A stretch of 63,415 bases of DNA, filler included, from Folioceros fuciformis (Eukaryota), in NCBI GenBank assembly GCA_049999805.1. It is 13 parts of 13 records of this genome, joined end to end, with 100 filler letters (N's around TTAATTAATTAA, not from the genome) between each part and the next. Parts side by side here need not be neighbours in the genome. Positions count along the whole stretch, not along the records: positions 3,683 to 5,446 come from JBNGIO010005532.1; 12 more parts are not named here. The stretch is one strand, 5' to 3'. Made by a program: the position numbers and the translations under genes. The notes below the pieces were generated by a model, which saw only the letters and a program-made list of their open reading frames with translations, was not told where the DNA came from and made no database searches. This document shows positions 121-36,790 of this stretch, in pieces. The number at the start of each line of letters is the position of its first letter. Positions within the stretch are counted from its first letter, which is position 1.

Positions 121-843
121 CTAGGTCAAACAAATCCTACCCTCCTTGGTCTTGGGGTCCCATTCAGGTGGTTTGAAAGCCACCTCCTTCCTCCCCCATG
201 ACAACCTGCACCTCAATCCATACAGCCAGGTCCTGCCCAACAAGATGTCGTAGCCCGATGCCTTGTGCTCAATGACCACAAAATCGAGAAGGTAGGGAAT
301 GGTCCCTATGGTCATGGTTACCCCTCTCAGCTCCCCTACCTGCTGCATTCTGGACATATCAGCTAACCTCAAAACTTTGGTTGTGTGCTCGATCTCCAAT
401 CCCAGTTTCTTGGCTGTATCCTCCTTCATAATATTCACCCCTGAACCTGTATCCAGCGGCACCCTCTTAATCACGCAGCCTGCAATTTCCACCTGCAGTT
501 CAGCCGGTCCTTCGTTCACCATGGACACCATGTTGACCATAGGAGCCGACAACCTTGGCCCTGATTTAGGTAGCCTCTTCCTCCTCTTGGGCTCGGCCTC
601 CTGCAACACCTTCCGAACCTGCTGTCGATACTTAGGGTTATCCTTTAGGAGCTGGCCAAAGGTGACAGCAAATTGTTGGTCCATGATAGCTCCAGCCAAA
701 TCAAACGGCTTTTGGCCAGTCCCCTCGGTCCCTTTGGTCACAGCTGCCACCTCCCTGGTTGGCAGACTTGCAGCCACGGGTGCTGACTCCTTTGCTGCCC
801 TGTCCAGCTCCTCTTGGATCATGTCCAACACTTCTCTCCTCAC
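121..843 (-). mobile_element. Ty3/gypsy-type gag C-terminus and aspartic protease fragment
   Basis: ORF has the retropepsin motif VPLDTGSGVNIM and downstream YDILLGRTWL; truncated at both ends. Confidence 0.75.
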
Positions 844-1159
844 ATCTTGAGTGAGAGAGTGAGGGAAGTGAGTGTGGGAAGTCGCAGATCTAAGAGGTTA
901 GGGTCGTTGTAGTGACTGGAGTGAGTTTGTGGGCACCGAGAGAAGTACAGCTGACCGCCGGACAGTGAGGCCTGTCCTACGCCTGATCGGAGCTGGAGGG
1001 GAGCCCTCGAATCCATCATCGAGTCGATCAAATCCGACCCTCCATCCACAGCAACAAGGAACCCCATCGCTCCTTCGTGGGAACGAAACCCAATGTCTGA
1101 ACGACAGTGGGATAAGTGTGGCCACTAAAGGTGGAACCCGTTGGCAATCAGTGCCCGGG

Positions 1160-2131
1160 GTTTTGCCTCCACACTTTGCTCTCTGAGGTCAAGGTAATAT
1201 TAAGCAGTAAATTTGAAATGAAGGTCATCGGTGAACTTAGGTTCTGTTTGGGAATACAAATTATCCGCAACAGACCTGATAGGCTGATGGTGATCCATCA
1301 GCTGAAGTATATTAATGAGATCCTAAGAAAGTTCAAGCTAGAAGACTGCCGACCAGCTACCACACCTGCAGCTGTTGGAGTAAAACTGACTAGCCTCATG
1401 TGCCCACAGAGCGCCCAAGACAAAAAGGATATGGAAGGCGTGCCATACAGGCATGCTGTAGGTAGTCTGATTTTTGTCGCTAACTGGACCAGGCCAGATG
1501 TGCAGTATACTGTTAGCACAATGTCACAGTTCTTGGAGAATCCAGGTAGGGGGCACTGGGTGGCTGTAAAGAGGATATTTAGGTACCTCAAGGGCACCAT
1601 GCACCATGGGCTAGTTTACAAAAGGGATGGAAAGGACAGACTTAGCTTGCGTGGATTCACGGATGTCGACTGGGCTTCAGACTCTGATTCCCGTAAGAGC
1701 CTATCCACATACTGTTTCTTATTGGCATCTGCAGCTGTAAACTGGAGCAACAAAAAGCAAAGCTCAATCTCCCTGTCCTCAACCAAAGCTGAGTATAAAT
1801 CACTTACAGAAGCTACGAAAGAGGCTGAGTGGGAAAGGAGATTCTTACTTGATCTAGGACAGGAGCAGATTGAGCCAACCCCGATATCTTGTGACAATAT
1901 GTCAACCTTGGCCTTGGTGGCAAACCCTCGCTTTCATGCGAGGACAAAACATATCGAAGTACAGCACCACTACATACGTGATGCTGTGGACAGAGGTGTG
2001 ACCAAGGTAAGCTTCGTGGGGACAAATGACAACACTGCCGACATACTCACGAAGGCCTTGCCCAAGCACAAACATTGTTAGCATATGGAAGGGTTGGGCA
2101 TACATGACTTCTCAGTGTATACAGAACAGTA
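1160..2131 (+). mobile_element. Ty1/copia RT C-terminus and RNase H (5'-truncated, degenerate)
   Basis: YRHAVGSLIF..TRPD, GFTDVDWASD, STKAEY, CDNMS, ARTKHIEVQHHYIR, ADILTKAL; stop at 2079-2081. Confidence 0.92.
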
Positions 2132-2382: not shown

Positions 2383-2817
2383 CTAGCCTGCAGCAAACAC
2401 GCAACCTTCCCTTAGTGACTTGGGAAGCTTGGCGGCGTCTTTCAGCAAAGTGATGTGGTCAATCCTGTACTCCAGCTCACGCAGGACGTCTGGGTCTATG
2501 TTCTCAGCTGTAGGGAGGTCGCTCTTCCACTCAACAGTCAAGCTGATGGCCATCCTCCAGTTGCCAATTTTGATGCTCCCCCTAGACCTTGCTCTGGGAG
2601 ATCTCCTCTTGGTAGCAAGTTTCTCGTCACCCTCATTATATCGCCTGCCACTCCGGAGTCTCATGCTGAAGAAACAGGAAGCTATTCTGATAAGCATGAA
2701 CAGCAAAACCTGAAGGAAGGCGATAGCGGAGGTGAATAGAAGTAGCGCCATCCCTGTACTCTGGGAGTACTCGAGTATGGTTGTTGGCGTAAGAGCACGC
2801 ATAAGGGGAGCAGGCAT
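2383..2817 (-). CDS. Antisense ORF with a hydrophobic N-terminal segment in the copia 3' region (hypothetical)
   Basis: 144-aa ATG ORF between the RNase H end and the PPT; hydrophobic stretch MALLLFTSAIAFLQVLLFMLIRIASCFF. Confidence 0.4.
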   Translation of the reverse strand: MPAPLMRALTPTTILEYSQSTGMALLLFTSAIAFLQVLLFMLIRIASCFFSMRLRSGRRYNEGDEKLATKRRSPRARSRGSIKIGNWRMAISLTVEWKSDLPTAENIDPDVLRELEYRIDHITLLKDAAKLPKSLREGCVFAAG

Positions 2818-2880
2818 GAGAGGGTCTCGTGGGCGTCAGCAGGACAGCAGGGGACTTAGCTCGTTGCGCTCGAGAGGGAG

Positions 2881-3218
2881 TGTGAGAGATAAACCCCGGT
2901 TAGGGCTTAAGTTACTTGCTTACTCGCTTTACCTAGGGTTAGGGTTATTTACCGAAGGGTTAATTAGCGAAGCGCTCTGTAGGCATAGTGGCATTATCAC
3001 GATGTGACTATAATATATTTTTGTATTCGTTACACAATTAATTTGCAACATATGTTGTTCAACAGCAAGTGCTTGCTCCTTTCACATTATGCACATAATT
3101 GTAGAGTGCGTTCCTTTTCTTGTTTCTTTAGATTGATCAAGTGTCTCAAGTCATCCATACGAAGCATGTTTGCATGCCCTTTCGGGCCTTCTGACTTAGG
3201 GGCTTGTAGAAATTTACA
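2881..3218 (+). repeat. 3' LTR of the copia element, preceded by a PPT
   Basis: GAGAGGGAG (2872-2880) immediately followed by TGTGAG; AT-rich body; plausible TTTACA end at 3218 (end uncertain). Confidence 0.6.
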
Positions 3219-3582
3219 AAGAAGAAGTGTCTTTACTGCTGGCGGGCACCTTTAAAAGCACCCGCTTATAAAAACAGTTAATACGGTTATTGTTCATGTC
3301 CCGTGAAATCTGAAATATACTAATTAATGATATATTGTGAATAACTTTAGCTAGGATATATCTATTTATATATATTTTTCACTCCCACTTAGACTAGCTA
3401 TGGTTATCTATCTACTCTTCGAGCCCCTCTCGTTTTGAGCTCGCTGTCTGGCACTTCACTTCACGCGCTATCGATCACTCTTGCGATTCCGGTTCTTCGA
3501 TGTTCTCTTGTCGTTCACACCTGCAACCAAAGTACCTGACTTCCCAGACTCATTCTGTACGCCCTTCGGCACACGTTTGATG

Positions 3583-3682
3583 NNNNNNNNNNNNNNNNNN
3601 NNNNNNNNNNNNNNNNNNNNNNNNNNTTAATTAATTAANNNNNNNNNNNNNNNNNNNNNNNNNNNNNNNNNNNNNNNNNNNN
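3583..3682. other. Artificial contig-joining spacer (first of 12)
   Basis: 44N-TTAATTAATTAA-44N; identical spacers at 5447, 8095, 9264, 19219, 22589, 52422, 53525, 56555, 57685, 59141 and 62160. Confidence 0.97.
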
Positions 3683-4208
3683 TGGAGAAGTACTCTCCCC
3701 CTCCATCAGATCTTAGGCATTTGATGTGCCTACCTGTCTGCTTCTCAACCATCGCCTTGAAAGTATGAAAATGAGTGATCACTTCACTTCTTTCTTTCAT
3801 GAAATAGACCCACACCTTCCTTGTGTGGTCGTCAATGAAGGTCACATAGTACTTGCAGCCTCCGATTGATGCAGTCTGTGTAGGACCCCATACATCTGAA
3901 TGCACAACATCCAACACATATCTGCTGACATGTTTGTCATGGGGGAACGCATTCCTAGGCTGTTTCCCAAGTTGACATGCTTCACATATACCTTGCAGTC
4001 CATTTTCTATAAGCTTGGGTATGCCTGTGACAACCTTCTGATGCTGCATGGACTTCAACTTCTGCACATTTACATGTCCAATGCGTTTGTACCACATCTC
4101 TAGGTCTGTCACTACCCTTGTACCCTTCGCAAACATGGCTGACTTCAGCTTAGGAACCTCCACGTTCAAGGTGAACATCCGTCCAACCTTCTGTCCTTGA
4201 GCAATCAG
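3683..4208 (-). mobile_element. Ty1/copia integrase N-terminal part (same family as 5547-7464)
   Basis: WYKRIGH..CEAC zinc finger, VHSDVWGP, LRSDGGGEY; near-identical to 5607-6132. Confidence 0.92.
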
Positions 4209-4468
4209 AAGAGGAGCCCTTCGACCATGAAGTGCTACAATGAGAATTGAATTAAGAAAGTAAAATGTACAAGCCTTTATATAGGCTAGGTGGTTAGGTG
4301 GTTAAGTGGTTATAACCATAAGTGGTGGTAACCACTAGGTAGTTGCAACTAATATAACAACTAACTACCTAGAGCAATTAAATAGAAAACTACCTAATGC
4401 CCTAGGAATAAATTAATGTTTAAGTAATATGGCCCTAATGAATAGTGCCCTAAACTAGATCTATTTCA
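4209..4468 (-). repeat. LTR-like segment inserted into the methyltransferase domain
   Basis: Begins TGAAATAG on the minus strand at 4468, AT-rich, contains TATATAAA; abuts the copia integrase. Confidence 0.6.
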
Positions 4469-4830
4469 TTACCCAATGCGCTGGTCCTCCAACTCGGCTT
4501 CCTCGCCTACTTGCGAGAACCCTTGAAATTCCCAACCAACAATTAGCACATCGATGAGTCCCAAAGCCTGGATATGGCCTTGTTGGATGTACCTGACGTC
4601 TAGAGGCAATGCTGCGAATGTGGCAGCCAATGGTGACTCTAGCACTTGTGTGGGAAACCTTCTATGGAGCGCCTAAAAACGATGAGCAGCCATCTGCTGT
4701 GCTTCCCCGCTGTCGTCGCAGTATACATAATGCCAAATGGGGAGGCCTGCTTTGAGCAAGGCTTCCAGGCCAGTGCAAATACCTTCGAATAGTTCGACCA
4801 GAAAGAGGCCTGTACTTGGGATGGGCCGAG
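4469..4830 (-). pseudogene. C5 cytosine DNA methyltransferase domain (DNMT3-like motifs I-IV) within a retrotransposon polyprotein; decayed
   Basis: Translation through one TAG (4673-4675): LFLVELFEGICTGLEALLKAGLPIWHYVYCDDSGEAQQMAAHRF*ALHRRFPTQ...LPLDVRYIQQGHIQALGLIDVLIVGWEFQGFSQVGEEAELEDQRIG; motif I FxG at 4781-4789 and a motif IV-like GWE(F)QGFS. Confidence 0.8.
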
Positions 4831-5165
4831 CAATCACTTGAGCACTAACAATATGCTCTTGTGTGGGATCCTTGAGCCCCCGCTGCAACATAGCTTGCAC
4901 CTGCAGAACAGGCTCATGAGCATCCTGCAACATGCTCTTAGTCTGTGTAGGGTGATCCGCAGCCTTGATCAGATCCGCCACCCTGCAGGTGACTATGGTG
5001 TTGCTAGAATAGCTGTCACAATGCTCCTCCTCCTGCTCAAAATCTAGGTGATCGTCATCATGCACATGGTCACTGGCCAACAGAATTGCTGTGCACGTGC
5101 TTGCCGTTCCACAAGTGTGGTTGTGCCAACCTTTGCCATGCCATGCAGTCGTAAGGAGAAGTGTG

Positions 5166-5446
5166 CTACCCTCTTTCCACTTGCTTCCAGTCTGGCCAAT
5201 AGTACGCTTGCTCCGTCCAGTTGTCCACACTCAGGCCTAGTGGAAACATAAATTCTTGACCTAACAACGCGTCATAATTCGTGGTTGTTGTCACCAAGCA
5301 TGGAAGGCTCGGTGTCATGGCACTACAGCTCAGTGTCATGGCATCTGTAGTGCCAGGCTTGAGCGTGATGTCCACATGGTGGACATTCTCTCCCGAGATT
5401 GGTTCAATGGCTCCTGATGAAGTCCTTATGTTCCAAGGAGAGCTCT
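5166..5446 (-). mobile_element. Gypsy-type aspartic protease C-terminal half upstream of the methyltransferase
   Basis: PWNIRTSSG...ITLKPGT...LPCLVTTTTNYDALLGQEFMFPLG, a retropepsin YDxLLG motif. Confidence 0.65.
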
Positions 5447-5546
5447 NNNNNNNNNNNNNNNNNNNNNNNNNNNNNNNNNNNNNNNNNNNNTTAATTAATT
5501 AANNNNNNNNNNNNNNNNNNNNNNNNNNNNNNNNNNNNNNNNNNNN

Positions 5547-7464
5547 TATAACGACATGAGTACTGCCGTTGAATGCCCTGTTCTGATAAGAATTTGCTGA
5601 ACTCTCTGGAGAAGTACTCTCCCCCTCCATCAGATCTTAGGCATTTGATGTGCCTACCTGTCTGCTTCTCAACCATCGCCTTGAAAGTATGAAAATGAGT
5701 GATCACTTCACTTTTTTCTTTCATGAAATAGACCCACACCTTCCTTGTGTGGTCGTCAATGAAGGTCACATAGTACTTGCAACCTCCGATTGATGCAGTC
5801 TGTGTAGGACCCCATACATCTGAATGCACAACATCCAACACATATCTGCTGACATGTTTGTCATGGGGGAACGCATTCCTAGGCTGTTTCCCAAGTTGAC
5901 ATGCTTCACATATACCTTGCAGTCCATTTTCTGTAAGCTTGGGTATGCCTGTGACAACCTTCTGATGCTGCATGGACTTCAACTTCTGCACATTTACATG
6001 TCCAATGCGTTTGTGCCACATCTCTAGGTCTGTCACTACCCTTGTACCCTTCGCAAACATGGCTGACTTCAGCTTAGGAACCTCCACGTTCAAGGTGAAC
6101 ATCCGTCCAACCTTCTGTCCTTGAGCAATCAGGCGACCGCCTTTCTTGCACTCTTCAACAAAGAGTCCTGCAGGTGTAAATCTAACCTGCAGTCCTTGCT
6201 CAACCATCTGCCCAACTGACACCAAGTTCTTTGTGATGTTGGGTACGTGAAGAACATCTACCAGGCACTTCACTTTGCCATCCTGCATCTTCAGAGGTAC
6301 AGTTCCTGTATGCACAATTGCATGTGTTGTGTCATCTCCAGTTTCTACATATCCAGGTTTGTCAAGCACTTGCATTTCTTTGAACCACTCCCCATGGCAT
6401 GTCATGTGGTTCGAAGCTCCTGAGTCCACATACCACACAATCTCACCATTGTTGGATCCATTAGCAGACACAGAGTTAAGCATATGCTGCATGACAAACA
6501 AGTTTTCTGAGTCATTCTGACTGCTGCTAGAGGCATAATTGTTCTGCTGCCTCCTGTTGCCTTGATTTCTCCTTGGACAGTCTCTTTCGAAGTGGTCTAA
6601 CCTACCACAAGTCCAGCAACCACTATTGTCTGCATTTGCATCATTTTGTTGTTGATTTCCACGTCCTCTTTGACTCCCCCAGCCTCGAGAATTTTCTCCT
6701 CTTCCACGTGTACTCTTGTACTGGGACTCCTGATTCTGTTGTTGATTTTGGTAGGGATTCCGACCTCTACCACCTCTTTGCCCTCTGCCACCTTGGGCTC
6801 TACCTCTGCCTCTGCCAGAGTAGAAGGCCTGCTCAGAGTTTTCCTTAGGCTTAGAGGATGATTCCTCGCCTAGGTTTTTCTCCTCTATGATCAACATAGA
6901 AATCAGGTCTGAGAAATTGGGAATGTTTTCCCGAGTCTGTATGGAAGTCTTGAACTGCTTGTAGGCAGGTGTTAACCCACGCAAGCAAACTTCGACCTTG
7001 TCATCATCTTCCACACTGACACCAATGGACACAAGGGATTCCACTATCCCTTTGATCTTTAACGCGTACTCATTGATTGATAAGTTCTTCTTCATAACTG
7101 TGTTGAAGTCATCCTTCAACTGCAGTTTTCTCGCCTTCGTGTTAGTCTCATAGAGTTTTACCAACTCATCCCATGCTTCTTTGGGCGACTCTGCATCCTG
7201 TATGTGCCCAATCATGGTGTCATGAATGCTGATTGACAGCCAATACATGACCTTCCGAGATCCTTGACTCCAATCCTTCAGCGCCTTAATCTGCTCCGCT
7301 GTTGCATTCCGTTCAAGTACTACAGGGGGTTTTTCATGCTCCCCCTCAATGTAGTCCCAATAACCCTTTCCCATAAGAAAGTTTGTAAAACGAAACTTCC
7401 AGGCATGGAAGTTGTTTTTGTCCAGCTTCTCCTGTACGATCTGGTTAATACTGTCACTAGCCAT
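5547..7464 (-). mobile_element. Ty1/copia gag-protease-integrase, uninterrupted ORF cut by the contig end
   Basis: EKLDKNNFHAWKF gag start, CWTCGRLDHFERDC zinc knuckle, WYVDSGASNHM protease, HHCC integrase. Confidence 0.95.
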
Positions 7465-8014
7465 TCTTGCCACCACTCAAGGTTGACACTCAATCCTTTC
7501 TTGAGTACTCACACCTGATAAATGTCTGAAAGAACCAGACTGCTTCTGACTGGAGTTTTACTCACAAGACCTTAAGTCTCTTCTTCCTAAGAGCAATCTG
7601 GTGCGGAATCACGCTGCCTTGTGTGAACCAGATTGTCTCATGCTCCGTGTCCTTACAGACTCTTGACTGTCTGCCCACAAAGCTCCCGTGAGATTTCCTG
7701 TCAATTCCTTCCCTGCTGCCAAGCTAGGGTTAGCACACTTTCTTGCAGCTGCTGAGGCTATTGCAGCTGTTGCCTCCACTTGTCAGCCCTTCCACAGAGC
7801 TCTGGGGATCAACAGCTAGTCCAGTAAGCTGACAGGCCTTGTCGCCCTTCTCCTCACTTCCTGCACACACCGATATGAGAGTTAGCTGCCGGGACGCTTG
7901 CTGCCGATCTCCCTCCAAGCTGCTCCAACTTCTCGTAGCTGCTCTAGCTTCTGGTGTGCACTCTTGCTGCCTCTTGCAGCACCTCCTACGCCGATCTTGC
8001 ACCGCCTGCACCGG

Positions 8015-8094
8015 GCTCTGATACCATGTCAATAGGATCGACTCCAGTCTACGTGCAAGTGTAGGAGAGGAGAGGAGAGAAGAGAGGGTGGTAT
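8015..8094 (-). promoter_or_regulatory. tRNAiMet PBS and 3' end of the 5' LTR
   Basis: Minus strand reads ...TTGACA then TGGTATCAGAGC (8026-8015). Confidence 0.85.
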
Positions 8095-10197
8095 NNNNNN
8101 NNNNNNNNNNNNNNNNNNNNNNNNNNNNNNNNNNNNNNTTAATTAATTAANNNNNNNNNNNNNNNNNNNNNNNNNNNNNNNNNNNNNNNNNNNNGTAGAG
8201 TCCTTGTACACACACCAATTCCAATTTGTTGGGTCGACAACAGGTCCGGTTGCCAAACTGTGGCCATCGTTCAGGGACCGCTGTCGGAAGATGACTCTTA
8301 ACAAAAGTCTCGTCGAGCCAGATCCCCGGCCGGGTAGACTGTACAAACGTATGTCTGACCACAGCAGCCTGAAGGGGTGAACCGTGAGCCGTCCTGCCTG
8401 AAGGGGTGACCCGTCCTATAATACCTGTGCGCGACCGGACTGGTGCTTCAGACCAATCGACCATGTGACGGATATTAGATGGTAACTTTATGTTTCACTC
8501 TAGATATACAAAACAGTTAAGTGCTTGTCAGCTGCCATAGGAAAAACAAGATGTTCATTTCAGGCTTGTCAACGTTAAGTGCATGTCAACCTACATACCC
8601 CAAGATATTTTTAAGCGAGCCATGGTATATCACGGTCTCTGTTTCTCATCACACAGTTGGGTCAGTTGGTATCTTGAAGGCCGAAACGGCAACGCGGTCC
8701 TGGATGTGACTAGACGAGGAATTGCCGTTACGTGAACGTCTAGATATGTGCCTCGCACTGCCTGGATTGTGATTGGGGTTGCTAGTTTCAACTGCTTCCT
8801 GTGAACTGCCAAGCTCTTGTGCCTTGATACTCCTCGGCATACTGGCTACCTATGTGCTTTCACCTGCACTGTACAGCATCATATACATACGGCAGTATTG
8901 GTCAGGAGAAGGAGTTGACGAGACCCTGCAAAGCACGTGTACAACGTGCTCATCATGAAGAGTGTGCAGGAGTGCAGGGAAAACATGCTAGGCTTGCTAC
9001 AAAGTTGTGTAGTACCTAGTCCCACAGAGCGAAATGCCGTCAAGTGCACGATCATACAATTCTTCTTCTTCTCCTCCTTCGTCTTCTTCTTGTTAGGGGA
9101 ACGATGGTACGTGCCACCAAGAAGAATTCGCACACCACTAGGAATCCGCCTGGCACTGGCTACACTCACTTCTTCATTTTTCTCATGGTCGACCCTTACA
9201 ACTGCAACAACCATTTGCGAATCGATGCACACGGTACCCATCCCTCACAACAATGTCTCTCTGNNNNNNNNNNNNNNNNNNNNNNNNNNNNNNNNNNNNN
9301 NNNNNNNTTAATTAATTAANNNNNNNNNNNNNNNNNNNNNNNNNNNNNNNNNNNNNNNNNNNNGGTCTGCTGGCTGGTGGTGGGTTGCTGAAGAGCCTAG
9401 CTAGTAGCCATCCCAGCCCGGCAGTAGGCAGGATCCGGTCAGGATCCAGGCCTCGCATCCCAGCAGGCGGCAGTATCCAGACCAGCTGACCAGGCGGGCT
9501 GGAATGCAGCGAGCTGGCGAACATGTTGGATTGAGGTGGGTGGCAGGCCAGGTAAGGGGCTGGCAGTTGGATCCAGGCAGCCAGGCCGGCTGGCTGAACA
9601 GTGGCCAGACGGTGGCCTGGCTGAATCGTGGCAACATGCAATGCATGCAGTTCTCGGACACGCTACAGGAGTACCTTCTGGATCTAAAGAATGAGCATCA
9701 GTGGAAGCAGTGGAAGTGTCGGCCGGTGTGGTGTTCCTGGTGCCCTCGCTGAAGGAGGGAGTAAGCTAAGAGGGAGTAGGCTGAGTTGTGGGGTGGTTCA
9801 TTGCACCAGTGAGAATTCTTCGGATATCCTGGTGCTCTAGAAGTAGGATTGCGTTTGTTCTTGTTAGCTTGCTTGTTAGCTTGCTTCCTCAGGGGTACTG
9901 GATGGGCAGCTAGGCCGGGTCATGGGCCTCCTGATCAGCAGCATGGGGGGTGGTTGGTCAGGATGGGGGGTGGCAAGATTGAAAGAAGATGGAGACTCTA
10001 AAGGGTTGCAAGATGATCGAAGGGAAAGGGATGATCTGAGAGAGGAGAGGAGAGTGTTGAGGAGCACTCCGGATTCTTGCTAGTTGGGAGAGGCTGACAA
10101 TGTTGGATAGAGGGCAACCAGCGGTGTCCAAGGGGGGTAATGGGCAATTAGGTGCAGGGGTAGGTTAGAGTTAGGCTTTGGTTAGGCTGCGATCAGA

Positions 10198-10345
10198 ATT
10201 AGGTCTAGGTCAGGCCTAGATTAGGTCTAGGTCAGGCCTAGATCAGGTCTAGGTCAGGCCTAGATCAGGTCTAGGTCAGGCCTGGATCAAGTCTAGGTCA
10301 GGCTTAGATTAGGTTTAGGTCAGACCTAGGTTAGGTTTAGGTCAG
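10198..10345. repeat. 22-bp tandem repeat with 11-bp subunits
   Basis: About 6-7 copies of AGGTCTAGGTCAGGCCTAGAT(T/C). Confidence 0.85.
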
Positions 10346-10974
10346 AACCGGATGTAGGATGGTTTAAGTCAGAGAGAGAGATGAGGGTGAGGGTACAAGA
10401 GGAGAGGCCTGCCATTGAGAGAGGGGGGTCTATGGTGTGATATCCCCAGACCTTGTGTGCGGAACTCCTGGCTTAGGGCGCTGAGCCGGTTGAGATTGAA
10501 CCAAGGTTCTGATTTCCCTTGCCACTAGGGGAACGTGGAGATCCCAAGACTGTCAAGATCCGTGTGGCCGGATCCGCAAGGGCTGAATGATTGGCAGGCT
10601 GGCTAAAGTGGAGGATCAGGACCGTGAGCTGGAGGGCTATCCAGTCCTGGTGACCACACTATGCTTGGAGGCTGCAGGGCGTGAAGCCATTGTGTCCCAA
10701 TTTCCAGGAAGGGACTGAAGTGGGAATCTTGAAGAGCTGAGGTGAAGGAGAAAGGGACTGAAGTGGGAATCTTGAAGAGCTGAAGGACTGAAGAACAGGA
10801 GTGAGTTGGGCGGGCTGACTTAGGGGGTAGGCTAGGCTTCTAGCCTTTTTGTTGTGAGTGTATGGACAGGCCTATGGACCGGCTGATAGGTAGAAGTGTG
10901 ATAGGTAGTGTTCCTTGGCACTAATTCACTCCCTTGGGAGCGAACCATAGGACTGCAGCGACAATAGGGGGGGA

Positions 10975-11223
10975 TGTGTGGCCCTTAGGTGGTTCTTGGT
11001 TGCAAGAAATCACTCCACACTAGTTAAGTATCATTTGTTTAGATTAGCTTAAGCTAATCTTTAGGAAGCTTCTTGCGCAGCTTCCTATGCGCTTCTTGTG
11101 AAGCTTCCTTGGGAGGTCTTCTAGAGGGTATAAATACCCTCTTGAGCTCCCTTGCAATACAATGTGTGAGACCTCTCTTTCTCCTCTCCTCCTTCATCAT
11201 GTGGCTCCCCTAGCGATCCTTCA
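10975..11223 (+). repeat. LTR (TG..CA) flanked by an upstream PPT and a downstream tRNAiMet PBS
   Basis: AGGGGGGGA 10966-10974, TG at 10975, TATAAATA 11129-11136, CA at 11223, TGGTATCAGAGC 11226-11237. Confidence 0.8.
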
Positions 11224-12054
11224 ACTGGTATCAGAGCCTAGATTGTGGAGCAAGATGGTGATGTCTGTAGGTGTTGAGGACAAGTTGCACAAAGGCGTGA
11301 GGAAGGCACCAGAGTGAGTGAAGGCAGGATCCCGGGGGCCGTTTGAGGCCACTTTATTGTCCAGCCCCGCCGAGCTCAGGCAGAGGCAATATGGGGCACC
11401 TAGGAGGCGCCGTCGTGCCACCTTGCGGCGCGGGGTGTCTGCCCCAGCGCGGGGCGCCCGATCCCGCGGGCCGCCAACCATGCAGGGCGTTAGAGCATGG
11501 GCCGCTCGGCCGCACGGATTAGGCAGTGGGCCGCAGGGCACCCAGGCGCACGGGCGTGGGCGCGGGTCCCAGATGCGGGTGCTAGGCGCGGGGCGCGGGC
11601 TAGCCGAGATCCTGGCCGCAAGGCGGCGGGATCAGGCCCCGGGCGCAAGGCAGCCCGGATCTCGGCCTCGGGATCAGGCCCAGGCTGTGGGGCAGCTCGG
11701 ATCCTGGCCGCGGGATCAGGCCCAGGCCGCTCTGGCCCAGCTCTTAGTTGCTTGGTGGTATGGCCAGATCTAGAACCGCAGGCGGCAAGATCTTGATCGG
11801 AGAACGAGACACTCCAGTCATGAGCGACTGAATTCCAGCCACAAACGGTCAGATTAGTCTCCCAACGCCAGGCAGGCCAGAACCGGACTTGGGCCTGTCG
11901 TGTCAACCTGAATTGTGGACAGACTCGTGCGATGGTTTGAGGTCTTCAAGTTGTGTTAGCCGATGCGAAACAAGGCGTGAGGGTAACTATCAGAATCTAC
12001 ATTACAATCCGACCGTTTCTAACTAGCCTTTGTTTGATTTGCATCGATTTTGAA

Positions 12055-15000
12055 TGATGACGTCCTCAGAAAACGTTATGTTCAATATCGAAAAGTTAGA
12101 TGGTACTAACTTCCCGTTCTAAAACAAACAAGTGTATAATGTTCTAGTGAAGAAAAAGCATATCAAGCCCATAAAATTGCTTGGTGGGAAACCTGTTAGC
12201 ATGACTCAGGATAAGTGGCAGGATCTAGATGAGCTTGCTAATCTACCATCATGCTCACATTGTCGAAGTCGGTCTACTTCAATGTGAAAGACAAGACCAC
12301 AAGTTACGAGCTATGATAGAAGTTGTGTGACCTGTATGAGAAGCAAAGTGCAGCTTCTCAGGTGTACACCCTGAAACAGCTGGTGGACTTGAAGATGAAG
12401 GAAGGGATGAGGATGTCCGATCATCAAAACGATTTAAATACCTTTTTCAGCCAGATCTCAGGCGCCACGCGCCCGAGCACCGTGGGCACAGCCAGGTCGA
12501 CGGGCACCGCCGGGCGTAGGCGCCAGGGCACACACGGTCAAGCCATGGGCACCGGAGCGCCATAACGTGAGCACAGACGCCGCAGGCGCTACCTCTCGCG
12601 AGCGTTGCGGGCGCTGGGATCAGTTCCCGGACACAGGCTAGACGGGATCCTTGCCGTGGGATTAGGCTCTCAGCCAACAGAAGGTGTGGCCGGATCTAGA
12701 GCCGCAAGGCGGCTAGATTTCGATCGGAGGATTTAGGCCCGTCGTGTCGGCCTAAATTGTGGACAGCCGATTCGGAACGAGGTGTGAGGGTAATTATCAA
12801 AATCTACATTACATTTTGACCAATTCTAATTTGCCTTTTGCTTGATTTGTATCGAGTTTGAATCATGACGTCCTCATAAAACGTCATGTTCAATATCGAG
12901 AAGTTAGATGGTACTAACTTCCCGTTCTAAAACGAACAAGTGTATAATGTTCTTGTGCAGAAGAAGCAGATCAAGCCCATAAAGTTGCTAGGAGTGAAAC
13001 CTGTTAGCATGACTCAGGATAAGTGGCAGGATCTAGATGAGCTTGCTAGATCTATCATGCTAACATTGTCGAAGTCGGTCTACTTCAGTGAAAGACAAGA
13101 CTACAAGTTACGAGCTATGACAGAAGTTGTATGACCTGTATGAGAAGTAAAGTGCAGCTTCTCATGTGTACTGGTTGAAATAGTTGGTGTGACTTAAAGA
13201 TGAAGGAAGGGACGAGGATGTCTGATCATCTAAATGAGTTCAATACCATTTTCAGCCAGCTCTCATCTCAAGGTATCTCGTTCCCAGATTTTGTGAGAGC
13301 TATGTTTCTGTTGATCACATTATCAGAGAGTTGGGACACCTTTCGTACAGCTCTGAGTAATTCCGCTCCTGCCAGTGGTCTCACCATTGTAAATGTAGAA
13401 GGTAGCCTATTAACAGAAGAGGTGAACAGGAAGAATATGGAACCTTTGAAAGGTTCCAATGCCCTCATGGTGAGAGGAAGGTCCACTTCAAAGGGGAAGC
13501 AAAAGGAGCGAAGCCTTTCCCGTAGTAAATCTTGTAATCATAACAATGTTGAGTGTTACCATTGTTACAAAAAGGGTCACATCAGAAGGGACTGCGAGAA
13601 GTTCAAGAAGGACAAAGGAAAGGAAAAGAAGCAGATCGACAACAAGGCAAGTCCGAGTATCAAGCCTGACAAGGTGAATTCTGTTGATGATGGAGATGTT
13701 CTTATCTCTTCTTCCTTTGATTATGCACAATTGACAGCCATGGATAGTCACTTATTCTCTAATTGGATAATTGACTCTAGAGCATCTTTCCATGTCACTT
13801 CGCATAAGGAGTGGTTTACACCTATTATGCTACTAGAAAAGGATGTGTTTGGCTTGGAAATAACTACGCATGCGAGATTGCAGGCTTTGGTGATGTACAG
13901 CTGAGGTTCGACAACGGATCTTCATTCATACTGAAGGATGTTAGGCATGTTCCGAAGGTGACAAAAAGCATGATTAGCATAGGGCAGTTGGATGACGTTG
14001 GCTACCACTATTGGTTTGGGGATCATTCTTGGAAGATCTCCAAAGGTTCTCTTGTGTTAGCTCGGGGATCGAAATGCGGCACTTTATACTCACTTCAGGT
14101 AACCATTGTCAAGAATCATGTGATTTGTGTAACGGAACAGCCAAATGTTTCCTTGTGGCATTGTCGGTTAGGACATATGTCTCAAAAAGGAATGAAGATC
14201 TTATATCATTTTGGTTACGTTCCTGCTTTTGACTCCTCCGATTTCTCCGTGTGTGAGCACTGTTTGTATGGAAAACAAATGAAATCGCCACAGGGAGCAA
14301 GATGTAAACACAAAAGTAAACCTCTTGAATTGGTTCACAATGACGTTTGTGGACCTATACCCACTGTATCATTAAGCGGTGCATTCTATTTTGTCACTTT
14401 CATAGATGATTTCTCACGCAAGGTGTGGGTTTATCCTTTGAGGAAAAAAGACGATGTTCTGATAGTGTTTCAGATATTCGGCACCTTTGTGGAGAATCAG
14501 TCTGGCCTTCGACTAAAGTGTCTAAGGATAAACAATTGTGGAGAGTACGTTTCGAAGGCTTTCCAATCATTCTGTGATTCTAAGGGAATCAAGAGAGAAT
14601 TGACTGCCCCGTATACTTCTCCCCAGAATGGTGTGGCTGAACGGATGAACAGGACCATCCAGGAGAGGATGCATAATTTGTTGTCAAACTCTGGATTGCC
14701 TTACGGATTTTGGGCAGAAGCAGTGTCTACTGCGGTGCATCTTATTAACAGATCTCCTAATAAGGCTGTATATGAGCAGGTTCTAGAGGGGCTGTGGTCT
14801 GGAAAGAAGCCGTCTCACAAGCATCTGAGTGTTTGGCTGCGAGGCATACTACCATGTTCCAAAGGAGTTTCGGGACAAGTTGGCACCCAAGTCCAGAGAA
14901 TGTATTTTTCTTGGCTATGGTGACTATGGTGAGATGGGATACCGTTTATGGGATCCAGAAGCCAAGAGAATTGTTCGCAGCAATGACGTGTTCTTCAATG

Positions 15001-15333
15001 AGAACAAGATGCACAAGAAGCCTACTCCAACTGTGGACGTGCGACAATTGGTCTTCTAAGAACATGGACTTGACCGTCACACACAGGTTGAACGTTGTGA
15101 TGTGCGGGAACCCGCTCCTCCACTTGTAGAAGAAGAGAGAGTGCAACCAGCCCCAGTCGAGGTGCCTATGCTTTGTAAGTCAGGAAGGATTTCACGTCCT
15201 CCTTACAGGTATGTTGCATCTCTTGATTATGTCATGCTGACAGATTGTGGGGAGCCCTCTTGTAACAAAGAGGCCACGTCAGTGACTGACAAGGACAAGT
15301 GGGAAAAGGCGATGCAGTCGCAGATGGATTCAC
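12055..15333 (+). mobile_element. Degenerate Ty1/copia gag-PR-INT to start of RT, with a duplicated gag 5' part
   Basis: IEKLDGTNF gag, CYHCYKKGHIRRDC, WIIDSRASFH, LWHCRLGH..CEHC, PQNGVAERMNRT; stops and frameshifts; cut at 15333. Confidence 0.92.
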
Positions 15334-15546
15334 TGAAAACACACAAGATTGTATTAGCAAGAACGATAGATTGTCAATTTGCTGACTAGAATTTATACAG
15401 GCATCGATTCAGTTATAATTGTTATGGGTGCGGTTAAGTATATGAATAACTTAAGTAACTACTTTGCTCTAACCGCTTGTTTAACGAAATGTGCCCTAAG
15501 GGTTCCGAGCATCTGTCAGCGCTAAAACCCTTATCTAACCCCAACA
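15334..15546 (-). repeat. 3' LTR of a second copia inserted in the first
   Basis: Minus strand: PPT GAAGGGGAG then TGTTGGGG...GTTTTCA; interrupts the plus-strand element at the start of RT. Confidence 0.75.
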
Positions 15547-15926
15547 CTCCCCTTCACTGTTGATCCGGAAGCTGCTTCATGTTGGTTGTTGATCGTCTAT
15601 GGCCTCGATTTCGCATGCCTTCCTGCAAGTGATGTTGAGTCTTCTCTCCAATGTTTGGTGGTTTCTTCAGCTCCTTAGCCACTTGGTCATGTGTGTAATG
15701 GAGAAGATCGCAAGTTTCAACAAACAAGAGTGCCCAAACGTAAGATTGAAAAGACGGGAGGAGGTTCACATGCTGCTAGTGGCAGGCGAGATTCAAAGAT
15801 GAGTCATAACTCAGTCTGTATGGAGGAGTTCGTGAGCGCGTCTTCCCAACCTTTGCCGCCTGAAGAAAAGTTGAAGTGGTGAAACCAGATAGGGAACTGT
15901 TGCTGCTGCAGTCTCGAAGCCCCCCC

Positions 15927-17269
15927 TCAAGTTGAGCTGGGAGTGTCGGCTCCAATGTTGCCAAGATAAGCCTCCTTACTTATTAGCCCTATACTTCTCA
16001 CATGCTTCTCATGCAACGCCTTGCTAAGTCCCTTTGTGAGAAGGTCGGCTGTATTGTCTGAGGTATTCACATAGCGAAGGAGGACCTGTTTGTTGGATAC
16101 TATTCGTCTTATGAAATGGTGCTGTATCTCGACGTGTTTAGTCCTAGCGTGCAAGATAGGGTTGTGAGTCATTGTTATTGCTGATTGGTTGTCGCATAAT
16201 AGTTCCATGGGTTAGTGTTGTTCCTCGTTGATGTCTTGCAAGAACTATCGAATCTAGAGGATTTCGTTCGCTACGAGTGAGGTGGCTGCGTACTCTGCTT
16301 CCATGCTTGATAGACATACGGTCTGCATTTTCTTGCAGCCCCATGAGACTGTCGAATCGTTCACCATCATGCAGTATGCGACAGTTGACTTCCTAGCATC
16401 TGGGTCACCAACCCAATTTGCATCGGAGTAAGATGGGAGTGTAAGCTTGGTAGAAGTACCTCTGTAAAGCAGTCCTAGGGATTTGGTTCCCTTCAGGCAG
16501 CGGAACACTCGCTTCACACAAGTCCAATGTGCTCTTCCGGGGTTTGATAAATATCTCGACGCTATGTTTACTGCCTGAGATATGTCTAGCCTCGTCCATA
16601 TGGACAGGTACAGTGAGCTTCCTACTGCCTCGCTATATGGGACTTCTTGCATCTCTTTGGCCTCCTCCGTTGTGCAGGGACAATCCTTTGCTGATACTTT
16701 CTCCCCTGTGGCTATAGGGGTGGACACTAGCTTTACGTCTTGGAGCTTAAACCTTTTGAGAAGCTGATCTATGTAATGTTGTTGGTGTATGAAGAAGGAG
16801 CTATCCTTGGGGTTGTTTTCAAACTGGACACCTAGGGCATAGCGCAGGGGACCTATGTCTACGACGTCATATTCCTTTGAAAGTAAGTCTTTTGCCAACT
16901 GTACAAATGACAGGCTATCTCCGAAGATGAAGTTATCATCTACGTATAAGGTGATGACGACTAGTTTGTTTGCTTCTTTTAATACATACACGCTGGGATC
17001 TCAGGTAAGTGGTGTGGAGCTGCATTTCTTTTAAGTACAGGTTGATAGTCAAGTTCCATACCTGGGCAGATTGCTTGAGTCCATAGAGGGACTTGAGCAA
17101 TTTACATACCTTGTGTGTGTCTCTCACAAACCCTGGTGGTTGCATCATATATATTTCTTCACTTATTGTGCCGAATAGAAAAGCGGTTTTGACGTCGACT
17201 TGGTGCACTTGCAGGTGATGATGCGCTACGAAAGCTAAGAGGATCCTGATGGAAGTTGATTTGACTATA
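15927..17269 (-). mobile_element. Ty1/copia RT-RNase H (degenerate)
   Basis: QVDVKTAFL, LLKSLYGLKQS, LYVDD, YSDANW, ARTKHVEIQHHFIR, ADLLTKGL. Confidence 0.93.
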
Positions 17270-19218
17270 CTATAGTCAGCGGTCGTATTCCGCCAAATCG
17301 GGCTTCGGGTCATTTTCTGTGTCATTTTCCGTGGCACATATCCAAAAATCATGCTATTTGGTGTGGATTACCCCCAAATCTATGGAACAACTATCACGAC
17401 AAACTTTGTATTCATCATGTTTACCCAGAAACTAGGCGAAATTGCGGGTTACCAACAGTAAAACTTTTTGATCCTATCCAGTTCCATGGTTGGTTTGACA
17501 CTACTTATTACATGTAGACGGAATGATATTTTTTGAAATCGGAATTACTTGAAACTGTAAAATGTTAAATCTTTTTCAATATCGCTCATTCAACCCTAGA
17601 CGGAAGGAGTGCGCCGGTAGAACGTCGCACTCCTACTTGTGAAGCGATGAGTAGCTGGTGAACACCCAGATCGGGTCTGGGGAAAGTGCACCAGAACTAT
17701 TCAAAATGAGTTAGGGTTAGGCCGGCGCACAGATAGACCGAGGTAGCTGCTCTCTATGAGCACCCCTACAAGGTGCTTATGAATAAGCAACCAAAGCTCT
17801 TTGCAAACAGTGTTCATATATATGAAGTATGGTATACATGAAATTACTTAATCAGTATAGTCTAAGTTTCTGCGAGTTCATCATCGAGTTCATCTGCACG
17901 GTTTTCTTGATCCCGCCTAAGCACATACAAGTTCTTTCTGATAAGGTTTCGAGTGCGAGCGTACAGCTGTTTTTGACGAGTTGACTCAAATCCATACGCT
18001 AAAATAAAAGTGTTCGCGATAGATATTGTGTCAATATGCTTCCGAAGTCTTCTGCTTGGTTGTCGCTTACGTCCTCGTCTAGAACCCATGGCAAGTTCTT
18101 CATTCGGCAATATCATCTCCTCTTGATATCGGCCTTCAAATGCATCTAAACATTTGTGACCCACCAATGGACTATGATACTATGAGTGTCATTTTCCTCC
18201 TGCATGTCCAGCACTTTGGCAATCCAAAAAGGCCTGTTGTCTACGTCTGTCTCGCATAGGACAGCAAGCATGTGCCCTGCTTCGATCTCTGATACATCTC
18301 CACTGAAGCTGTCAACATCGTTCCGAACGTAAGCATCTCTTCTATAAGGCCCCACATACAGATCTCTTCTAGGAACTTCTCGTATCCGTGGGTTTTCCAA
18401 TACCACATCTGGCACGAGTAATGGGGTATTTAACAACTCTGCCTCGTCGCGATTATACCATCGCCATGGCCAGTCAAGGTCTTGCTCTACACACGAATTT
18501 ATACTTTGAATGATGGCCTCTTGCTCGGCCCAAAATGAATCCCACCACAAGTCTTCGCCCAGACCTAAGTGTTGCCGTAATTTGAACTCCAATCTTGATC
18601 GAATCTGTGATAGATTATATCCTGGCACATTGTCCATAATAGTCTTTTGTTTCCTACTCCTCACCTACAGATGCATCAATGGAGCGACTTTCATATTCCT
18701 CTCCGGAACTACTTTTAGGAGTTCTATCCCTTCATCAGGCGACCAATATTGATCAGTGGAATATTGTTTTCCTCTCATAACTGTAACAGGTCCACGATCT
18801 CCACGGCTCTTTTTCGTGATCTTAAACTGGTGTTGAAACGATATATTATGCAACTGACTAACCACTGCAACACTCTGATATCTTGCTTTCCCATAGGGTA
18901 TAGGCCAAACAAACTTTCTGAAGTCAAGCACCTCCTTCACCTTATGAACGTCTGGCATGGGGGAATACGCGCTCTGCATAATTGCAATAAGCTTAGGTAA
19001 AGTCAAAGCTTCCTTCCAACTGAGTGCTGTTGAAAACCTGGAAAACATTTGATCAACCTGGTTGTGTGTGTGCCCCACTAGCAGGAATCCAACTTTTATC
19101 TTTAAGAAAACCCGCATTTCCACTAACCTATTCAAATAAGAAAAAAGCAACGCATTTTTATTCTCGCGTGCCATGTTGTCTAGTTGCAAATATAGTACTC
19201 CAGGTAGCAAGCCTTCGT
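17270..19218 (-). mobile_element. DDE transposase-like (Sola-like) element, degenerate, inserted in copia RT
   Basis: LYLQLDNMARENKN...GFLLVGHTHNQVDQMFSRFS; ORFs 18665-19210, 18146-18664 (same frame after a TAG) and 17862-18167 form one decayed protein; superfamily assignment is from motif recall. Confidence 0.6.
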
Positions 19219-26998: not shown

Positions 26999-28300
26999 TC
27001 AAGATTGTAGCATTCCGTGAATAGATGCACTTCTGGGTGCGATGAACTTTGGACGGCTGTCTAATGCCTTCGGTCCCATGCGATGATCGTTATGGTAACA
27101 GGTTTGGCAAACTCGGGTCCACAGTTTGGACACTGTATGGTAGGCGACGACGTCCACCCGCCTGGGCACAGTCGCAACAACCATCAACAGTTTGTCGCCC
27201 ACGATCTCTACGGCCAACACTCTCAAACTAGACCCCAAAACCTGCGGTGGACTCGAGACAAGCGTCCACGCCGCGCTGCCTTCATTCAACTTGAAGATGG
27301 TGCAGTCCAGCAGCACCGCGTAAAGGGCCTCGCAGTCGTAGCTGGGAAGATAGTGCACGGTCGTGCCCTGATGCAAAGGTGGCAGCGCGCTGATGTACTC
27401 GGCCTCTGCACTCAACCGCACCGGCGCATAAGAGGTGTAATTCTCCTTCCGATACCACACAACAGGGTAGATGAACCGTCTGCTCACGAACTCCGACGTC
27501 AGACGCAGCCGGCTACCCAAATCGGCGCCGATGTCCAGTGCCAGCTGCTCAGCCGACGACTTGGAAACGACAATCCTGGTCCACGTCTCGGGCGGGATTC
27601 CACTGGCAGAGCTGGAGTAGATGTAGAATCCTTCGTCAACGAGATCTTCGGTGTGGAACGACACGACAAGGCGGAAGCTGTAATCTGCATCCACCGCCAT
27701 AGTTAGGTCACCAACATGGCCCCAAGGGAGCGGAGGAAGCTCCTGACACGGGGTCTCCTCCACCGGGTTGAAGACGAAGATTCGAATGCTGCGCGTCGGC
27801 CGGTAGGAGCGCGCCATGAGCGCCAGCAGGCCGCCTTGCGCGCACCAATTCTCGCTGGGAATCAACTGTCTCTCGTCCACATCCGCCGGCAGCATCATCT
27901 TCGCCACCTTGAAACGCTCCACGATAGCGAAGGCTTTCACGGCCCTACACAGGGCTACAGCCCTACCGGAGCGCAATGCTATGGAGGTGGTCTGGTGCCG
28001 GAATCTTGAAGACGTGATGAGCTTCCTCCACTGCTTGCACACGGTGCAAAAGCGGGCCTGGCTGACGGCTGGAAGGAGCAGCAGAACATTCTCCACCAAG
28101 TTTTCGGGAAATCCTGCCCAAATTGCACTCATCTCCCTCGCGGGGGCTGCAATGGGAAACACCTCCTCCAGGAGCGTCATGTACATCATGGGCTGCTCTC
28201 GGGTAGGAATCGATAGTGCCATCGTCGGGAGCGGAGCGGAGAGGAGAGACCAGCAGCAAGCTAGATCTGCCAGCAGGATGAACACGAAGCGCCCCGGCAA
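26999..28300 (-). CDS. F-box protein (N-terminal F-box, beta-rich C-terminus); true start probably a downstream ATG
   Basis: IWAGFPENLVENVLLLLPAVSQARFCTVCKQWRKLI F-box; VFNP..LPP motif. Confidence 0.8.
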   Translation of the reverse strand: MPGRFVFILLADLACCWSLLSAPLPTMALSIPTREQPMMYMTLLEEVFPIAAPAREMSAIWAGFPENLVENVLLLLPAVSQARFCTVCKQWRKLITSSRFRHQTTSIALRSGRAVALCRAVKAFAIVERFKVAKMMLPADVDERQLIPSENWCAQGGLLALMARSYRPTRSIRIFVFNPVEETPCQELPPLPWGHVGDLTMAVDADYSFRLVVSFHTEDLVDEGFYIYSSSASGIPPETWTRIVVSKSSAEQLALDIGADLGSRLRLTSEFVSRRFIYPVVWYRKENYTSYAPVRLSAEAEYISALPPLHQGTTVHYLPSYDCEALYAVLLDCTIFKLNEGSAAWTLVSSPPQVLGSSLRVLAVEIVGDKLLMVVATVPRRVDVVAYHTVSKLWTRVCQTCYHNDHRMGPKALDSRPKFIAPRSASIHGMLQS

Positions 28301-35877: not shown

Positions 35878-36790
35878 CTTGGATGGATCTTGGATCCCCC
35901 TTGATGGAGGATGGAGGTTAGTGCTCACCTTTGAAGAAGTAGCGGACCAACAGACGGGCCACTTTGCTGCGAACCTGAAGTAGGCGCAGTAACTCTATTC
36001 TGCACTGATTCCTTCTCAAGGGCTTGGATATGTGCTACGGGTAGACTTGGGCTACCCCGGTGATCATCCCCGACGCATCTAATACATCCGAGTGCATACA
36101 GCCTCTCAGAGCGATGAACTTGGTCGCGTGGCATGTTCTCTTTTTCTTGAGTTTTGGGCTCGCATCTCTTTTCACCCGCATGCCATTTCGGCACAGAGCC
36201 CTAATCCTACACTCGAAGGTTTACTTACCGAGCGGTTTACTCTTTGAAAGGAAGGTAAGAATTTTGTGGGGATCCTCTAACCTCCACGCGATTTCGGGCC
36301 GTCAGCCCCGATCCGGCCCCGCGGGGATCTCTTCTTAACTATCATCAATTATCCTAACAAAGCGAGCTTGTAGGACTGCGGGATTCAAATGGCTGTCGGA
36401 GTTCTTAAAATTACATCAATTCTGATGCAAGATAAATTTTGAATGAACGTCAAGTAATGGAAAAGATTAATTTAGTGGTTAATGATTTAGTGATCAAAAC
36501 CACAATACCTAAATTCATTCTAACTTGTAACATATTTGTGAATGAGATTTTACTAGTGAAAAAAAGTTCACATTAAATTTAGAACTTCATAGACCCGGTT
36601 TGCCAAATATTGCACCCTTAATGGACATAAAATAAAGATTCAATAACCTCGAAGAATAAATGAAGTTAAATAGGTACACTTATTTTACTTACTTTATACT
36701 GAAATATAAAAATATTTTGAATAAAATTCTTGCATTAGTCAAGGTTTCCTCTTACCAAAAGAATTTGGTCACTTTAATCTGAAATTTTAC

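Follow-up and report, generated by a model that had tools for sequence, protein, structure and literature searches.

A dead, truncated remnant of a probable Gypsy-DNMT3-type retrotransposon in an apparent land-plant genome

A 63,415-nucleotide stretch of DNA (the window) from the assembly GCA_049999805.1, labelled Folioceros fuciformis, contains about 960 bp of a retrotransposon that appears to have carried its own C5 cytosine DNA methyltransferase (DNMT). We consider it probable that this element is a dead, truncated Ty3/gypsy-type remnant of the streptophyte Gypsy-DNMT3 kind, residing in a likely land-plant genome in the form of a few copies or alleles that arose after inactivation. Retrotransposons with a cytosine methyltransferase of their own are a rare instance of a parasite stealing the silencing tool of its host, and in the green-lineage literature that we found they are described only in Klebsormidium nitens. 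Our analysis adds two elements to this picture, namely the order gag, aspartic protease (PR), DNMT and reverse transcriptase (RT) in proteins of Closterium, and a relic of this family in what appears to be the genome of a land plant. The system is of a known kind, falling with the K. nitens and Closterium elements; the host group is possibly new.

Results

A methyltransferase fragment behind a retropepsin C-terminus

The window consists of 13 separate contigs of 1.0–29.7 kb joined by spacers of the form N44-TTAATTAATTAA-N44 (among them positions 3583–3682, 5447–5546 and 8095–8194), and adjacency across these spacers is meaningless. The methyltransferase relic is located in a 1,764-bp contig (3683–5446) and reads on the minus strand. 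The initial annotation had described a retropepsin C-terminus, a frame change and a methyltransferase segment spanning motifs I to IV, and all of these were found where it had placed them. The C-terminal part of the retropepsin occupies 5184–5444, with its catalytic N-terminal part lying beyond the contig end at 5446. The PR frame runs from 5444 to 5166, ends in ...NYDALLGQEFMFPLGLSVDNWTEQAYYWPDWK / TTNYDALLGQEFMFPLGLSVDNWTEQAYYWPDWK, and closes at a stop codon at 5168–5166. A poorly conserved linker (4826–5183, minus strand), delineated by three-frame translation, leads to the DNMT part. From 5230 the DNMT frame is open, and about 115 unremarkable codons precede LFLVELFEGICTGLEALLKAGLPIWHYVYCD.

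The N-terminal third of a DNMT3-type C5 methyltransferase, beginning at motif I and ending shortly after motif IV, is located at 4478–4825 (minus strand), as delimited by hhalign, phmmer and the profile of its relatives. Motif I, the S-adenosylmethionine-binding loop, reads ELFEGICTGLEA (4760–4795, minus strand) and motif IV reads GWEFQGFS (4514–4537, minus strand). Between them the frame is interrupted by a single TAG (4675–4673, minus strand), beyond which it resumes as ...LPLDVRYIQQGHIQALGLIDVLIVGWEFQGFSQVG. The end of the homology and the terminating stop codon (4471–4469) fall within 4469–4477, so that the surviving sequence comprises the protease C-terminus, the linker and motifs I–IV, with motifs VI, VIII, IX and X missing.

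Homology to retrotransposon-borne DNMT3-type enzymes

Homology of the segment to retrotransposon-borne DNMT3-type methyltransferases is supported by sensitive sequence comparison. We used the read-through translation, with the TAG entered as X, in an exhaustive phmmer search against 1.84 billion protein representatives. The search returned 394 proteins at E<=1e-3, of which 60 reach E<=1e-10; the two best have E 1.6e-27 (45% identity) and 7.9e-27 (40% identity). Aligned by hhalign to an alignment of 22 relatives, the read-through gives a probability of 99.8% and E 1e-29 over residues 136–251 (window 4825–4478; 116 columns). The profile of the 22 relatives matches DNMT3A at 3.3e-23 over the whole catalytic domain, followed by DNMT3B and DNMT3C, with weaker matches to M.HhaI (~1e-9) and plant DRM2 (2e-5). 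Pfam scanning was applied to 76 of the 150 best phmmer matches, 41 of which reach the curated cut-off of PF00145 (DNA_methylase).

The relatives continue for about 250 residues beyond the point at which the homology ends at 4478, through motif VI (LLENV), motif VIII (AHRLRxxWTN) and the C-terminal motifs. The motif IV pattern G-x-x-C-Q-x-x-S is found in 121 of 160 stored relatives. A Protein Atlas search with the first open reading frame (ORF) gave sub-threshold leads only (score 0.88), including two clusters in which 58% and 23% of the members have PF00145. The sole Pfam match of the read-through itself, to DUF3674 at E 0.06, was taken as spurious.

Protease context and element architecture

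The protease and methyltransferase pieces align with single, uninterrupted proteins of similar layout. In BLASTP the PR piece matches residues 303–381 of P0009 with 41% identity over 86 residues (E 2e-15), overlapping the Pfam Asp_protease_2 match of that protein (263–358), and the DNMT piece matches residues 488–598 of the same protein (41%, E 8e-25). By tblastn, residues 515–589 of Closterium P0150 match the PR part (E 1e-7), as do P0013 and P0004. PR is followed by DNMT in the same order and at similar spacing in four uninterrupted proteins (P0009, P0004, P0013 and Closterium P0150). In the window about 115 codons separate the PR C-terminus from the DNMT domain downstream of it, and the two are collinear with the relatives, as in a polyprotein.

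The gag-PR-DNMT-RT order predicted in the initial annotation exists in an intact relative, Closterium P0282, with CCHC at 194, PR at 369–421, DNMT at 603–655 and RT at 994–1144. These positions are those of the cluster member CAI7855100.1 (Closterium). RT also lies downstream of DNMT in Closterium P0083, and K. nitens GAQ93235.1 (P0142) has the order CCHC-PR-DNMT. Retroelement domains stand beside the DNMT stretch in 57 of the 76 scanned relatives, in two architectures. The first, in 49 of the 76, has RT/RNase H upstream of DNMT or integrase downstream, usually with a C-terminal PHD finger. The second, in eight, has a zinc knuckle or aspartic protease upstream (P0009, P0040, P0132, P0142, P0150) or RT/RNase H downstream (P0083, P0032, P0078). 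The other 19 show the methylase alone or nothing, P0090 with an added Dam domain among them. From its domain order, the window copy is assigned to the second, PR-DNMT architecture.

The environmental gypsy polyproteins of the first architecture (P0011, P0014, P0026, P0047, P0079 and others) have the order RT-RNaseH-DNMT3-like-integrase-PHD, some with a Tudor or G-patch domain, and many of the relatives retain the catalytic motif G-W-x-C-Q. We found no description of this architecture in the available text of the literature retrieved. The environmental protein P0090 (1417 aa) combines a C5 DNA_methylase match (633–769) with a Dam adenine-methylase match (1221–1292) and recalls the EpiLTR elements, as far as these are characterized in the accessible part of a preprint (bioRxiv 10.64898/2026.05.21.726589).

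Placement among algal elements

We built a DNMT tree of 151 rows and 117 columns, in which 12 rows were labelled as PR-DNMT type (P0004 and P0013 by eye and tblastn). The window falls on a 58-row side that holds all 12 PR-DNMT rows, including K. nitens and Closterium, on a branch with a Shimodaira–Hasegawa-like approximate likelihood ratio (SH-aLRT) of 91. A tblastn comparison of K. nitens P0142 with the DNMT part of the window gives E 6.5e-14 and 32% identity over 112 residues. The window DNMT thus probably groups with the K. nitens elements, at moderate tree support.

Thirty relatives were looked up by exact sequence. Eight carry an organism name, one being Klebsormidium nitens (GAQ93235.1) and seven Closterium; the other 22 are metagenome or run-assembly proteins. 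Motif IV in the form G-x-x-C-Q-x-x-S is present in 16 of 17 checked relatives, among them that of K. nitens and nine of the ten from Closterium (the ten being P0040, P0083, P0132, P0150, P0030, P0055, P0022, P0282, P0283 and P0293). Many entries of Closterium sp. NIES-53, -54, -65 and -68 annotated as 'unnamed protein product' are gag-PR-DNMT(-RT) polyproteins. Judged by these domain contents, the Gypsy-DNMT3 family is present in Zygnematophyceae as well as in Klebsormidium. Closterium belongs to the algal group closest to land plants.

The copy is inactivated

Among the 22 aligned relatives, 17 columns are conserved at >=90%. The fragment covers 16 of them, keeping 12 and changing four; the remaining column, that of the motif VI Glu, falls past the break. 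In motif I (ELFEGI), a Glu (4786–4784) stands at the first Gly position, where 20 of the 22 relatives have Gly and two Ala; the invariant second Gly is kept. In motif IV, a Phe (4528–4526), already noted in the initial annotation, occupies the position of the catalytic Cys, which is present in all 22 relatives. Two further conserved residues are altered, an Ala to Val and the invariant Gly after motif IV to Glu. At least one frame change lies between 5184 and about 4945, and its exact position is not fixable because the linkers of the relatives are too unlike.

The domain is incomplete, ending at 4478 before motifs VI (ENV), VIII, IX and X, and the frameshift, the TAG and the changes in four of 16 covered conserved columns are not those of an open frame under purifying selection. 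The window copy is dead, and no enzyme can be made from it: it combines the frameshift, the TAG, Phe for Cys, the changed residues and truncation after motif IV. The initial annotation had already called the copy dead, correctly, and had placed a single TAG inside the domain, where we find it. The copy is an inert fossil without functional consequence. The CpG observed/expected ratio is 0.46, within the 0.36–0.49 of the other transposable element (TE) contigs, compared with 0.67 in the genic contig.

Junctions with unrelated repeats

The DNMT homology is followed by an AT-rich, non-coding segment (4209–4468; no strand assigned) with 33% G+C (0.331) and no CpG. Most of it (~4227–4465) is a dispersed repeat of unassigned class, with a summed word depth of 190–440 compared with 8–26 for single unitigs over the DNMT part, and with several loose ends, one at 4465. 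A unitig, X2 record 9, spans 4431–4587 with 0 differences and bridges the two parts, confirming that the DNMT part joins an unrelated repeat at a junction near 4468. The initial annotation had interpreted this position as an insertion of a long terminal repeat (LTR). The junction is real; the repeat has internal inverted repeats, but we found in it neither LTR ends nor another hallmark, and no match to the copia contig.

Beyond the AT-rich segment, 3683–4208 (minus strand) is a 5'-truncated internal fragment of a Ty1/copia element, covering pre-integrase and integrase (Pfam gag_pre-integrs and rve). It is 99.24% identical to 5607–6132 of the next contig over 526 bases. Its summed depth in X1 is about 2,800–19,000, and full copia sequence continues from the loose end at 4208. 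The copia fragment is physically joined to the DNMT element and is not part of it. In the neighbouring contig, a Ty1/copia element (5547–8094, minus strand) keeps an open 643-codon gag-PR-integrase frame at a word depth in the thousands, which suggests that the copia family of both regions is very abundant and probably recently active. The nearest Protein Atlas cluster of the copia ORF is most commonly Streptophyta, a weak hint to the host. Contig 1 is a TE mosaic in which a gypsy-type gag-aspartyl-protease ORF (121–897, minus strand) lies beside a C-terminal copia RT fragment (1116–2081, plus strand); it gave no match to the DNMT-family proteins.

Sister copies in sequencing runs

We compared the stretch with unitigs and contigs of sequencing runs at >=90% identity, and the figures given here are from the matches listed. 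Two runs of one sample contain 0.65 and 0.60 of the words of the stretch. At least several variant unitigs, each at a depth of about 11–26, cover 4469–5446. Beyond substitutions, they show 1- and 5-base insertions (5179 and 5075) and skips of 89 and 122 linker bases. At least one of them, X1 record 2 (4584–4705), with four differences (4614, 4645, 4671 and 4676), retains the TAG, since all four lie elsewhere. This shared TAG points to multiplication after inactivation or to allelic variants. The summed depth over the DNMT part in X1 is about 9–180 (single unitigs 8–26), which, given the thousands reached by copia, implies only few copies. These data point to a family consisting here of few copies or alleles multiplied after inactivation.

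Ten relatives used as tblastn queries revealed nothing further of the family in the window. No RNA run is listed for the DNMT stretch, and the contigs of X4, guessed to be RNA, match only the copia part, which is uninformative on expression.

The host genome

A 30-kb contig of the window (22689–52421) bears a land-plant signature. It contains pentatricopeptide repeat (PPR) genes with an E motif and a DYW_deaminase domain (ORFs 41509–44295 and 38981–41128, both minus strand), and the PLS/E/DYW class of PPR proteins is confined to land plants within Archaeplastida, according to the accessible portion of a 2026 survey (PMC13386178). A cytosolic-type pyruvate kinase (34285–35994, minus strand), an F-box gene and an RD21-like papain-granulin protease are also encoded on this gene-dense contig, whose ORFs include 36791–38227 and 26999–28300 (both minus strand). 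Each of these genes is one uninterrupted ORF, and the lack of introns is unusual for the protease and the kinase.

Among the best 120 matches of the pyruvate kinase, every organism-named one is from an embryophyte, at 56–65% identity, including Selaginella, Diphasiastrum, Ginkgo, Calypogeia, Sphagnum and angiosperms; one better match reaches 76%. In a small tree the partner of the window protein is this 76% protein, on a long branch apart from the named rows of lycophytes, liverworts, mosses and seed plants. The host is most likely a land plant, probably of a non-seed lineage that is poorly covered by annotated proteins; a hornwort-like or some other unsampled lineage would be no more than a guess. 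The copia fragment on the DNMT contig is present at thousands-fold depth in the same runs, and recurs in a run from a different study that carries the same species label. The DNMT contig is probably tied to the host genome by this fragment, by the abundance of the flanking repeat and by the CpG depletion of 0.46, three weaker lines whose evidence is good, though not independent.

Discussion

Intact members of the family would encode a single polyprotein containing gag with a zinc knuckle, an aspartic protease, a DNMT3-type methyltransferase and then RT, from which the protease would release the DNMT3-type enzyme by cleavage. In the window copy, the rest of the domain together with RT, RNase H and integrase would have been lost at the junction with the unrelated AT-rich repeat, which is followed by the copia fragment. 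Judging from the literature, the DNMT of intact elements may mark the element's own cDNA or insertions, or may interfere with host methylation.

Several observations weigh against our interpretation of the window element as a gypsy-type relic in a land-plant genome. A direct Pfam scan of the window translation at E<=10 yielded no DNA_methylase and no protease family, the 92-residue PR piece included, and phmmer of the read-through against PDB chains gave 0 matches at E<=10. The methyltransferase assignment therefore rests on the relatives. A comparison with the DNA_methylase profile, proposed in the initial annotation as a check, accordingly succeeds for the relatives and is empty for the read-through itself. 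Two word-indexed searches of a 5.8-billion-protein set ('longer' and 'near' lengths) also returned nothing at their thresholds, which we attribute to a limit of sensitivity because the exhaustive phmmer search succeeded. LTRs, RT, RNase H and integrase are absent from the window copy, and the term gypsy is thus taken from the relatives. In the 151-row tree, with only 117 columns, the branch that sets off the window's side is not among the strongly supported ones, no strongly supported small clade contains the window, and no land-plant protein is found among the eight organism-named relatives (of 30 looked up), which are all from K. nitens or Closterium. The signs of a land-plant host lie on contigs other than the DNMT contig, in a window that is a concatenation, and it is the copia fragment and the unitig depths that connect the two. 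The sequencing runs in which the stretch occurs are probably those from which the assembly was made, and no unitig crosses the 4208 junction among the matches listed.

The initial annotation went further and proposed a PR-DNMT-RT gypsy family that is alive in this plant, with an enzyme that could methylate cDNA or insertions of the element and with the window copy as one dead member. In intact-looking relatives from elsewhere, motif I and the catalytic Cys are preserved (16 of 17 with the motif IV pattern), the DNMT domains of K. nitens are under purifying selection as far as the available text of PMC5890265 reports, and several sister pieces occur in the same sample. On the other hand, the copies are few when depths over the DNMT part are set against the thousands of copia, one sister shares the TAG and others have extra linker indels and deletions, and the ten relatives used in tblastn detect no further piece in the window. 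In addition, the same text reports an absence of methylation by the K. nitens domain when tested in yeast, a result that its authors call inconclusive. We therefore regard a living family as unlikely. What stands of the proposal is the relic itself and a few sister pieces at >=90% identity, at least one of them with the same TAG; a capacity of the family to methylate its own cDNA is not supported.

A broader extension, which we put forward tentatively and with considerable doubt, is that the Gypsy-DNMT3 lineage of streptophyte algae crossed into, or persisted in, embryophytes, and that this plant lineage may hold intact copies acting on plant chromatin as a TE-encoded de novo methyltransferase. 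The initial annotation had suggested a TE-encoded epigenetic system new to embryophytes. We found no published embryophyte case, in agreement with the suggestion, but the kind of system is known from K. nitens and occurs also in Closterium, so the novelty would concern the host.

The DNMT stretch might instead derive from an algal contaminant or epiphyte, Klebsormidium- or Closterium-like, mis-assembled onto plant repeats. Every named relative is a streptophyte alga, and within 260 bp the short contig changes in character twice. However, the best relative is only 45–48% identical, and the source would hence be no sampled alga. The DNMT/repeat junction is spanned without a difference by X2 record 9 (4431–4587), and the flanking repeat, at a summed depth of 190–440, is too abundant for a trace contaminant. 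The CpG depletion, furthermore, resembles that of the other TE contigs of the window. Contamination is in our view quite improbable.

It is more improbable still, and by a wide margin, that the segment is a pseudogene of the plant's own DNMT3 gene lying by chance beside an unrelated retrotransposon protease. The family profile is indeed DNMT3-like, and non-seed plants reportedly keep DNMT3, as Yaari et al. are said to have described in 2019. Against this stand the PR-then-DNMT order with similar spacing in four uninterrupted relatives, the retroelement domains beside DNMT in 57 of the 76 scanned best matches, and the position of the window on the PR-DNMT side of the tree. Finally, a chance likeness of short motifs in a decayed ORF, which would fit the empty direct Pfam and PDB searches, is refuted by the phmmer E of 1.6e-27 against 1.84 billion proteins, the hhalign E of 1e-29 and the retention of 12 of 16 covered conserved columns.

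We thus favor a dead gypsy-type relic in a likely land-plant genome. If the host assignment is true, the family is present in embryophytes or has entered them. It would then be worth looking for intact copies in hornworts, lycophytes, ferns and bryophytes, and asking whether DNMT3 domains have been exchanged between such elements and plant hosts.

Comparison with known systems

In our literature search, reports of TE-borne DNMT3 were confined to dinoflagellates and to 'streptophytes', by which Klebsormidium is meant, with no embryophyte case found; nor did we find a paper that combines Closterium, retrotransposon and DNMT. The available text of one 2025 paper and of a 2026 preprint (bioRxiv 10.64898/2026.05.21.726589) cites TE-borne DNMT3 only for these two groups, via de Mendoza et al. 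2018, and among the papers searched the term 'Gypsy-DNMT3' appears in no others than these two. The initial annotation had mentioned DNMT-bearing retrotransposons from dinoflagellates and a charophyte, in agreement with the portion of that study available to us (PMC5890265).

The SymbioDIRS-Dnmt3 and SymbioLINE-Dnmt elements of Symbiodinium are likewise retrotransposon-borne cytosine methyltransferases, those of the DIRS elements being of DNMT3 type. According to the same portion of PMC5890265, they differ from the window element in belonging to the DIRS and LINE classes, in their independent acquisition and in their dinoflagellate host, and the SymbioDIRS-Dnmt3 domains methylate CG de novo in yeast.

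The cellular enzymes DNMT3A, DNMT3B and DNMT3C (PDB 2qrv, 6u8p, 8tci and others) are the best structure matches of the family profile and share motifs I–X with it. In contrast to the element, they are encoded by host genes with PWWP/ADD partners and have no PR or RT context, and the window fragment alone does not match them.

The environmental RT-RNaseH-DNMT-integrase-PHD polyproteins and the EpiLTRs possess a homologous DNMT domain with G-W-x-C-Q. In the environmental polyproteins, however, DNMT lies between RNase H and integrase and a PHD finger is C-terminal, and they fall on the other side of the tree. The EpiLTRs carry both Dam and DNMT, and their DNMT is sister to DNMT4, as stated in the accessible part of the preprint (bioRxiv 10.64898/2026.05.21.726589).

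The gag-PR-DNMT-RT polyproteins of Closterium (CAI7855100.1, GJP34393.1) resemble the window element in domain order and tree side and are 27–34% identical to its PR and DNMT parts. They differ in their zygnematophyte hosts, their uninterrupted frames and the Cys of motif IV, and are annotated but undescribed.

KnitGypsy-Dnmt3 of Klebsormidium nitens, as described in the available text of PMC5890265 (de Mendoza et al. 2018), is an LTR gypsy element whose Pol polyprotein includes a Dnmt3 domain under purifying selection. From its species and architecture, we infer that P0142 is a copy of this element. As in the window element, a DNMT3-type domain resides in a gypsy-type polyprotein, and P0142 shares the window's side of the tree. 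The two differ in that KnitGypsy-Dnmt3 has a charophyte host and has kept its key residues under purifying selection, whereas the window element is a truncated pseudogene in an apparent land plant.

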